Below are positions 2,031-2,080 of a stretch of DNA of 4,126 nt, one piece after another (within the stretch, counting starts at the first letter, position 1; every line of letters begins with the position of its first letter). Source of the stretch: a virus (taxonomy: Duplodnaviria; Heunggongvirae; Uroviricota; Caudoviricetes); IMG/VR virus record IMGVR_UViG_2690316311_000023; one strand, given 5' to 3'. Both the position numbers and the translations under genes were made by a program. Under the pieces are notes generated by a model. That model saw only the letters and a list, made by a program, of their open reading frames with translations. It ran no database searches and was not told the DNA's origin.

Positions 2031-2080
2031 CTGGGGGCCTCGCAATAGATTGACCAAGATGTGCCCCTAAATAGGCCCCC
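2031..2080 (-). promoter_or_regulatory. GC-rich inverted repeat able to sequester the integrase Shine-Dalgarno in an RNA stem
   Basis: Minus-strand RNA reads GGGGGCCU-(32 nt)-AGGCCCCC-AG-AUG. Arms are at plus 2073-2080 and 2033-2040. The 3' arm contains the GAGG Shine-Dalgarno and ends 2 nt before the ATG at 2030. Confidence 0.35.

Follow-up and report, generated by a model that had tools for sequence, protein, structure and literature searches.

The window analyzed here is a stretch of 4,126 nt (virus record IMGVR_UViG_2690316311_000023). It contains, on the minus strand, the gene of an IntS/P4-type tyrosine integrase (840-2030) that belongs to a genomic island at the tRNA gene argW. A G/C-rich inverted repeat lies immediately upstream of this gene and was read in the initial annotation as an RNA stem that throttles integrase translation or, alternatively, as a protein operator overlapping the start. 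Based on sequence comparison and on analogy with related integrases, we consider it probable (roughly 0.8) that the inverted repeat represents two of the three arm-type sites that the attL P' arm provides for the integrase of the island; these would serve intasome assembly and probably autorepression. This assignment builds on an array of three copies with a fixed geometry, on motifs that switch in concert within a locus and are linked to the N-terminal domain of the integrase, and on a matching tandem at attR.

The repeat was confirmed as a perfect, G/C-rich 8-bp inverted repeat, consisting on the plus strand of GGGGGCCT at 2033-2040 and AGGCCCCC at 2073-2080 with the expected 32 nt between them (2041-2072). 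A repeat search extended the complementarity to 18-nt arms at 83% (2023-2040 and 2073-2090). Read on the minus strand, the 3' arm ended at 2033, which is 2 nt before the integrase ATG (2030-2028). The Shine-Dalgarno sequence, GAGG, was read from the sequence at 2038-2041 (minus strand), 7 nt before the ATG. The initial annotation had placed it inside the 3' arm; the distance of 2 nt and the overlap were correct, but only three of the four GAGG bases (2041-2038) fall within the arm. A third copy of the motif, which had not been mentioned before, fills the start of the supposed loop, where GTGCCCCTAAAT (2061-2072) directly adjoins AGGCCCCCAAAT (2073-2084) as a direct repeat. The array therefore has three members, described here on the minus strand: a pair of direct copies with a 12-nt spacing, and an inverted copy at the ATG. 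The distal direct copy, P'1 (2073-2084; minus-strand ATTTGGGGGCCT; -54 to -43 from the ATG), forms the 5' arm of the repeat, and an equivalent copy was present at -50 to -54 in 46 aligned relatives. The second direct copy, P'2 (2061-2072; minus-strand ATTTAGGGGCAC), follows 12 nt downstream of P'1 inside the "loop". The inverted copy, P'3 (2029-2040; minus-strand AGGCCCCCAGAT), forms the 3' arm, is identical to plus-strand 2073-2084 at 11 of 12 positions, and overlaps the Shine-Dalgarno sequence and the first two bases of the ATG.

The three sites (2029-2084) are located between an attachment (att) core and the integrase ATG. The core is the 3'-terminal 15 nt of the tRNA-Arg gene argW (CTGCAGGGGACACCA; 2206-2220, minus strand) and marks the junction of a prophage attR arm and the island attL arm. 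A second perfect copy of the 15-nt core was present at the far end of the island (L083:4546-4560; L numbers denote individual loci of the comparison). The window was identical to E. coli O26:H11 genomes, and its order on the minus strand runs from P22/HK620-like prophage early-left genes (DUF551, DUF4752 and others) through torI and the argW 3' end into a 175-nt leader and the integrase gene. The 175-nt leader represents the attL P' arm of the argW genomic island, and the window is a tandem array in which the prophage attR arm (2221-2299) meets the island attL arm (2031-2205) at the shared core. No complete tRNA was found in the window. In other E. coli strains an intact integrase gene follows argW directly, with the same ATG, the same 175-nt leader and no tandem prophage, and the leader was found in 276 E. 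coli genomes. The integrase matched the Pfam families Phage_int_M (2.2e-33), Phage_integrase (1e-25) and Arm-DNA-bind_3 (PF13356). The last match spans residues 3-88 (E = 1.7e-28), and a separate N-terminal arm-binding domain is thus present.

A profile of the N-terminal 221 integrase residues yielded 80 Enterobacterales loci with 52-75% identity. Almost all of them had the same arrangement, in which an inverted copy lies downstream of a direct pair with a spacing of about 12 nt (12 nt in almost every locus, 11-13 nt in a few); no recognizable array was found in 3 of the 80 loci (L047, L050 and L074). The direct copies were near -51 and -39 in most loci, and in 46 aligned leaders the end of the P'3 equivalent ranged from 2 nt before the start codon to 2 nt into it. 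The six closest relatives are all at argW and keep TTGGGGGCCT, a second copy GGGGGCTT 12 nt further on and GAGGCCCCC beside the ATG, with a variable loop, variable flanks and a variable distance to the ATG (1-4 nt). Among relatives sharing 72-75% amino-acid identity the arms did not vary at all, in contrast to the loop and flanks, which had diverged. This conservation of the array across homologous loci shows that the repeat did not arise by chance. Overlap with the ribosome-binding site (RBS) was seen in most loci; in about 10 relatives the whole array was located 85-190 nt upstream of the RBS and ATG (L010, L019, L023, L026, L031, L034, L035, L043, L053 and L078), and five further loci had it at an intermediate distance. 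Across these leaders the array is conserved and the RBS overlap is not. A diverged E. coli allele (L084) had 10 substitutions downstream of the core and none in the three sites, although this is not significant alone, as the sites make up about 36 of the 175 nt.

The motif of the sites differed by lineage and fell into six classes: GGGGGCCT, GGGGGCAT, GGGGGCAC, GGGGGTAT/C, GTGTATAG and, in K-12, GGGTAAAA. All copies in a locus (P'1, P'2 and P'3) switched motif together, and the copies differed at 1.0-2.1 of 10 positions within a locus versus 3.6-4.1 between loci. In mosaic relatives the motif class tracked the arm-binding N-domain of the integrase and not the core-binding domain. L042, which has the GTGTATAG motif, and L041, which has the same motif, were 73% identical in the N-domain and 64% in the core-binding domain, and the values for L042 and L008 (GGGGGCAT) were 53% and 76%, respectively. 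For L016 and L036, which have a common motif, they were 83% and 59%. This association, seen in the sequences of the relatives, is correlative.

The same motif was also found at the opposite end of the island. In the island attR, TGGGGCCC occurs twice, 12 nt apart, at 63-82 nt inside the distal core (L083:4464-4483) and in the orientation of P'1 and P'2. On NC_013361 the tandem occupies positions 3331463-3331482. TGGGGCCC did not occur elsewhere in 50 kb, and GGGGCC formed no other tandem pair in 94 kb. The attR arm was single-copy in 271 E. coli genomes, compared with 276 genomes for the integrase leader, and both GGGGCC cores and their spacing were unchanged in an attR variant of 82% identity. 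No integrase transcript starts at the attR tandem. At the level of sequence, the features that characterize arm-type sites were all present: a location in an att arm, direct and inverted copies of about 10 bp near helical-repeat spacing, an arm-binding domain in the integrase, the motif in the other arm, and covariance of the motif with the N-domain.

By analogy with KplE1 IntS and lambda Int, the N-terminal domain of the integrase would bind the arm sites of about 10 bp, and its catalytic domain would bind the argW core 175 bp away. Arm and core binding, with a bending protein and an excisionase, would build the intasome for integration and excision. As the array overlaps the promoter-proximal leader, the RBS and the start codon of int, bound integrase would most likely repress its own gene at the DNA level. 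Both the binding of the sites by the integrase and the autorepression are what homology leads us to expect. The RNA hairpin would be a physical consequence of the inverted orientation of the sites, and its formation would require a transcript start upstream of 2085.

The RNA form of the repeat is a 13-bp helix, CAUUUGGGGGCCU/AGGCCCCCAGAUG, which takes in the AUG and covers the GAGG Shine-Dalgarno sequence. When the minus-strand RNA of 2150-2000 was folded, as the initial annotation had suggested, this helix was present in the minimum-free-energy structure. The isolated hairpin had a predicted energy of -28.3 kcal/mol. The z-score of the 151-nt fold was a modest -2.1, and 8 of 200 shuffles folded equally well. 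The predicted probability that the segment from the Shine-Dalgarno sequence to the AUG is unpaired was 0.14 with the 5' arm in the RNA versus 0.41-0.46 for RNAs starting at -40 to -32. A search of Rfam 15 gave no covariance-model match in 2000-2300, even at E ≤ 1.

Conservation and covariation of the repeat in homologous integrase leaders had been put forward as a check on the RNA stem. The arms were conserved and the covariation was positive, but a direct copy that cannot pair scored as high, and the check did not discriminate. Site-anchored sequences were used for this comparison; because the sites were fitted in making these alignments, the scores have meaning only relative to shuffles and to each other. 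For the inverted pair, P'1 with P'3, 91% of the positions were paired, 7 of 10 pairs had changed on both sides, and the covariation score was 0.489 versus 0.18 in shuffles. For the control, P'1 with the reverse complement of P'2, where no RNA pairing is possible, 84% were paired, 9 of 10 had changed on both sides, and the score was 0.442 versus 0.205. As the non-pairing direct copy covaried about equally, the covariation is not RNA-specific, and the signal is concerted evolution of a repeated motif and not base pairing. Pairing-specific covariation beyond that of the non-pairing copies, the mark of an RBS-sequestering hairpin, was not found. The sense-strand G·U bias among arm mismatches was not significant, with 13 sense-compatible and 8 antisense-compatible mismatches. 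Column-wise pair counts on the natural leader alignment were unusable: the 3' arm was 1-2 columns out of register between classes, because its distance to the ATG varies, and slid controls scored equal to the structure. The result calls for caution, as inverted protein-binding sites that co-evolve with their protein mimic textbook "compensatory" covariation, and a non-pairing copy is needed as a control before RNA structure is called.

Whether the hairpin can form depends on where transcription starts. For the K-12 homologue intS, the integrase gene of KplE1, Panis et al. (2010; PMC2951348) mapped the start by primer extension to the end of P'2, 28-29 nt upstream of the ATG, which leaves the K-12 mRNA without the 5' copies. 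The initial annotation had named a start downstream of 2073 as a finding that would speak against the RNA stem; such a start exists in the K-12 homologue, and for the window it holds by homology only. A consensus promoter scan of the leader gave no match. A rough sigma-70 matrix recovered the mapped K-12 promoter. For the GGGGGCAC class, some of the GGGGGTAT class and part of the GTGTATAG class, its best match corresponded in position to that promoter, with the -35 near -69 and the -10 where P'1 meets P'2. For the window class the top match was a fully conserved TATAAT at -132 with a poor -35. This hexamer (2157-2162) is contained in a conserved box, TTATAATCAG (2154-2163, minus strand), which was invariant in 8 of 8 leaders of the motif class and has the same position as AATATCAAG in the K-12 attL. 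The box could be a -10-like hexamer or an IHF-like WATCAR element; only the WATCAR half fits IHF, and that assignment is hence not claimed. Transcription from the -132 box, or read-through from argW or torI, would allow the hairpin to form, and no terminator was predicted between torI and int.

RNA-level control would operate if the integrase mRNA, or read-through RNA from argW or torI, held both arms; the helix would then sequester the Shine-Dalgarno sequence and the AUG and lower integrase translation, either alone or beside the DNA role of the sites. It could draw on the length, G/C content and energy of the predicted helix, on the fall in accessibility from about 0.45 to 0.14 with the 5' arm, and on P'1 and P'3 being nearly perfect complements. 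The inverted copy overlaps the RBS and start codon in most relatives, the region between torI and int is free of predicted terminators, and the sole -10-like box that the matrix found in the window's motif class is the one 132 nt upstream. In addition, the passage of PMC2951348 that refers to Piazzolla and co-workers mentions a suggestion that Vis, the excisionase of satellite phage P4, binds int mRNA. We nevertheless regard RNA-level control as unlikely. The covariation was not specific to pairing, the sense G·U-compatible mismatches were not significantly enriched, and the array was retained far from the RBS in about 10 relatives. The motif pair recurs at attR in the absence of any int RNA, the mapped K-12 start leaves out the 5' copies, a promoter at the homologous position was the top prediction in several other motif classes, and Rfam offered no match. 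Physical occlusion of the RBS is plausible in some transcripts, but no evidence was found for RNA occlusion as a selected function. A second, RNA-level use of the arm sites is similarly doubtful. In such a scheme, transcripts entering from upstream (argW or torI read-through) would fold and bury the Shine-Dalgarno sequence and AUG, while transcripts from an array-internal promoter would lack the 5' arm and stay translatable. If true, the fold-back would insulate integrase synthesis from outside transcription across the tRNA-associated integrase family. Of the two proposals in the initial annotation, the operator overlapping the start was thus retained, with the integrase as the likely protein, and the throttling by RNA was unsupported as a conserved function in view of the control covariation, the distant arrays, the attR tandem and the K-12 start.

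The sites could also bind a different protein: an excisionase of the island or the prophage (TorI/AlpA type), or else IHF, Fis or another host factor. TorI and IHF both bind the KplE1 attL, TorI represses the intS promoter (PintS), and the leaders contain other conserved boxes: TTATAATCAG, 10-nt periodic GTCAAC/GTCTAC repeats and CTGTTCGGTCT. However, the published TorI sites differ in motif (GTTCG, GATCG, GTCCG) and are situated upstream of the -35, no lineage-specific motif would be required for a host factor, the motif tracks the integrase N-domain, and the equivalent K-12 repeats were assigned to IntS (PMC2951348). Binding by another protein therefore appears very improbable. The least probable explanation, a chance palindrome or a functionless intrinsic terminator, was refuted by the conservation data. 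Short perfect inverted repeats were indeed frequent, as the window contained 16 perfect 8-mer seeds (loops of 3-40 nt) versus 3.3 per shuffle, and the fold z-score was unimpressive. An 8-mer inverted repeat with at least 7 G/C, however, occurred in only 1.7% of 300 dinucleotide shuffles, and chance would not account for arms that stay invariant while loop and flanks diverge, nor for an architecture kept in nearly all 80 loci. An intrinsic (Rho-independent) terminator was rejected, as the stem has a 32-nt loop and is not followed by a U-tract, and the terminator scan was silent there.

Some points weigh against the sites being arm-type sites of the island integrase. Both the sites and their motif are assigned to this integrase from positional homology and comparative patterns. 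P'1 and P'3 were closer to each other (1.0 mismatches in 10) than either was to P'2 (2.1), which would also fit selection for pairing. In K-12, though, the outer pair P'1/P'4 is likewise identical (GGGTAAAAA), and there P'1 is left out of the mRNA by the mapped start, so that the likeness of the outer pair here needs no RNA-level selection. Mutation of single P' sites in KplE1 left repression intact, and P'1 was inseparable from the -10 (PMC2951348); the operator role of individual sites was therefore not cleanly demonstrated even in the model system. Furthermore, the rough matrix found no K-12-like promoter at the P'1/P'2 junction in the window class, and if the conserved TATAAT that it preferred, 132 nt upstream, is the promoter, all three sites would be located in the 5' untranslated region.

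Further conserved features were noticed within and around the array. In 46 loci, covering every motif class, P'2 had its own conserved deviation (GCTT vs GCCT, CAT vs CAC, TATAT vs TATAG), with P'1 and P'3 near-identical; P'2 may be a weaker site or be under another constraint, such as overlap with a -10. The spacer between P'2 and P'3 (2045-2056; minus-strand CTTGGTCAATCT) has the form CTGTTCGGTCT(A/T)G or CTGTTCAAT and was conserved across lineages with differing arm motifs. It contains GTTCG, a published TorI-site motif, and could be a candidate excisionase or bending-protein site. Upstream of P'1, L004-L007 and L067 have four 10-nt-periodic repeats (GTCAAC / GTCTAC / TTCAAC / ATCAAT) at -105 to -62, the position of the KplE1 TorI sites I3-I5. 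The same periodic repeats are degenerate in the E. coli island (GTCGCC / TTCTCC / GGGAAC / ATCAAG; window 2086-2125). The G-run motif classes have GAGG, GAGA or GGAG at the place of the Shine-Dalgarno sequence. In the GTGTATAG class (L041, L048 and related loci) and in K-12 intS, the proximal arm site extends into the start codon (CTATACAC-ATG and TTTTTACCC-ATG, respectively) and no Shine-Dalgarno sequence was recognizable; translation of these integrases may be intrinsically poor.

On the prophage side of the core, torI (2294-2494, minus strand) is annotated in RefSeq as "response regulator inhibitor TorI". It encodes the recombination directionality factor (excisionase) of an HK620/KplE1-type prophage and reads toward the island integrase. 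The P-arm sites of the prophage attR are two copies of GGGTAAAAT, 12 nt apart (2278-2299, minus strand), which have the motif of the published KplE1 IntS arm-type sites and are located 58-93 nt from the core. The region 2031-2299 resembles a chimeric attP at argW, with the TorI-side arm of the prophage and the attL arm of the island around one 15-nt core. Part of the core, TCCCCTGC (2211-2218), is repeated perfectly in inverted orientation as GCAGGGGA (2237-2244), at a distance of 18 nt toward the prophage, and TCCCCTG, a 7-nt direct copy of part of the core, is present in the island arm at 2101-2107. These copies may be core-type or accessory sites, or may be due to chance. A bidirectional terminator-like hairpin (AAGCCGCCTGATGGCGGTTT followed by a T-run) was located at 2543-2562, between a small open reading frame (ORF; 2552-2734) and torI. 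At the end of the window an IS600 copy begins at 4001 (4001-4126) and encodes MSRKTQRYSKEFKAEAVRTVL from 4064; identity to strain 11368 ends exactly there. The insertion truncates the 5' part of the prophage DUF551 gene, which encodes 195 aa in strain 11368 and is a 161-aa ORF here.

The integrase gene of the window is inactivated by an in-frame TAA at 1365-1367 (TAC to TAA, Tyr222 to stop), which RefSeq flags as "internal stop". The intact 396-aa allele differs from the window copy by this one base (window 1365). The integrase alleles of AVS0285 and EC0880B are intact and otherwise identical to the window copy or different at one further base. The ATG at 2030-2028 is also the RefSeq start of the gene, in the O26 genome as well as in strains with the intact copy. 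The inactivation looks recent and may fix the island in O26. The island continues downstream of the integrase with Ag43, a GTPase and YeeU-type genes. Within the window, positions 1-840 downstream of int are AT-rich and have no convincing ORF. A strong hairpin, GCCTCCAC...GTGGAGGC, was present at 151-171, and a sub-threshold Rfam small RNA match, Arrc14, at 137-230 (31 bits vs a gathering score of 99) is unrelated to the repeat.

With the arm-site assignment, the annotation changes from an apparent riboregulator to a defined attL P' arm, and a candidate recognition motif of the TTGGGGGCCT type is provided for the argW-island integrase. Both ends of the island are defined as well. This integrase occurs in about 5% of complete E. 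coli genomes. The comparative table of six motif classes, fixed geometry and N-domain tracking offers a start for understanding how Arm-DNA-bind_3 domains read DNA. The arrangement itself is ordinary, has already been described for IntS/P4-type integrases, and will not surprise specialists in site-specific recombination. The initial annotation considered such control of integrase translation poorly described for this family, which is inaccurate, as the regulation by Int and Vis in P4 and by IntS and TorI in KplE1 has been published.

The closest known system is KplE1 (CPS-53) of E. coli K-12. In its attL, Panis et al. (2010; PMC2951348) described IntS arm-type sites P'1-P'4, which have TAAA in common; P'1 coincides in part with the -10. 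The four sites are GGGTAAAAA, GGATAAAAT, ATTTTACCC and TTTTTACCC, and the argW-intS leader is GGGTAAAAAGTGGATAAAATAATTTTACCCACCGGATTTTTACCC-ATG. IntS and TorI each repress PintS about fivefold, and KplE1 excision needs a narrow IntS concentration (PMC2951348), which provides a rationale for tight control of int. The island shares with KplE1 the argW target, the same 15-nt core, the same arm-binding domain and matching integrase families (52-61% amino-acid identity among these relatives). Direct copies are followed by inverted copies in both, with the last abutting the ATG, and both have a 12-nt tandem on the attR side, the KplE1-type one being that at window 2278-2299. The two differ in motif, which is of the GGGGGCCT type here and of the GGGTAAAA type in KplE1, and in the number of copies, three here and four in KplE1. 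In the island the GAGG Shine-Dalgarno sequence overlaps the proximal site, and in its class no strong promoter was recognizable at the P'1/P'2 junction. Moreover, KplE1 is a lambdoid prophage, whereas the element here is a genomic island with Ag43 and YeeU-type genes and with arm-type sites predicted from sequence.

As described in the passages of PMC2951348 that treat satellite phage P4, the att arm of P4 contains the int promoter, on which Int and the excisionase act as repressors. The island integrase belongs to the same superfamily and likewise has its putative promoter region in an att arm, whereas P4 targets leuX and has different repeats. We know of no RBS-sequestering arm-site hairpin described for P4. 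Its int/attP region, treated by Pierson and Kahn in 1987 and by Piazzolla and colleagues in 2006, reportedly contains repeated Int sites and is subject to repression by Int and Vis, and a post-transcriptional component acting between Vis and int mRNA is said to have been proposed. In uropathogenic E. coli, the intI promoter of PAI I-536 is repressed by the integrase itself, and expression is attenuated through an IHF site located in the promoter region (PMC7286903); arm-type repeats were not defined in that study. PAI I-536 resembles the element here in having a P4-type island integrase beside a tRNA gene and differs from it in the integrase, the target (selC) and the sites. Fold-back inhibition has been described for the IS10 transposase, where transcripts from outside carry the upstream complement of the RBS and are translationally silent, while transcripts from the internal promoter lack the complement. 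An RNA-level use of the island repeat would work alike; there is no evidence of fold-back here, and the complementary segments of the island are putative protein-binding sites, which would have an independent reason to exist.

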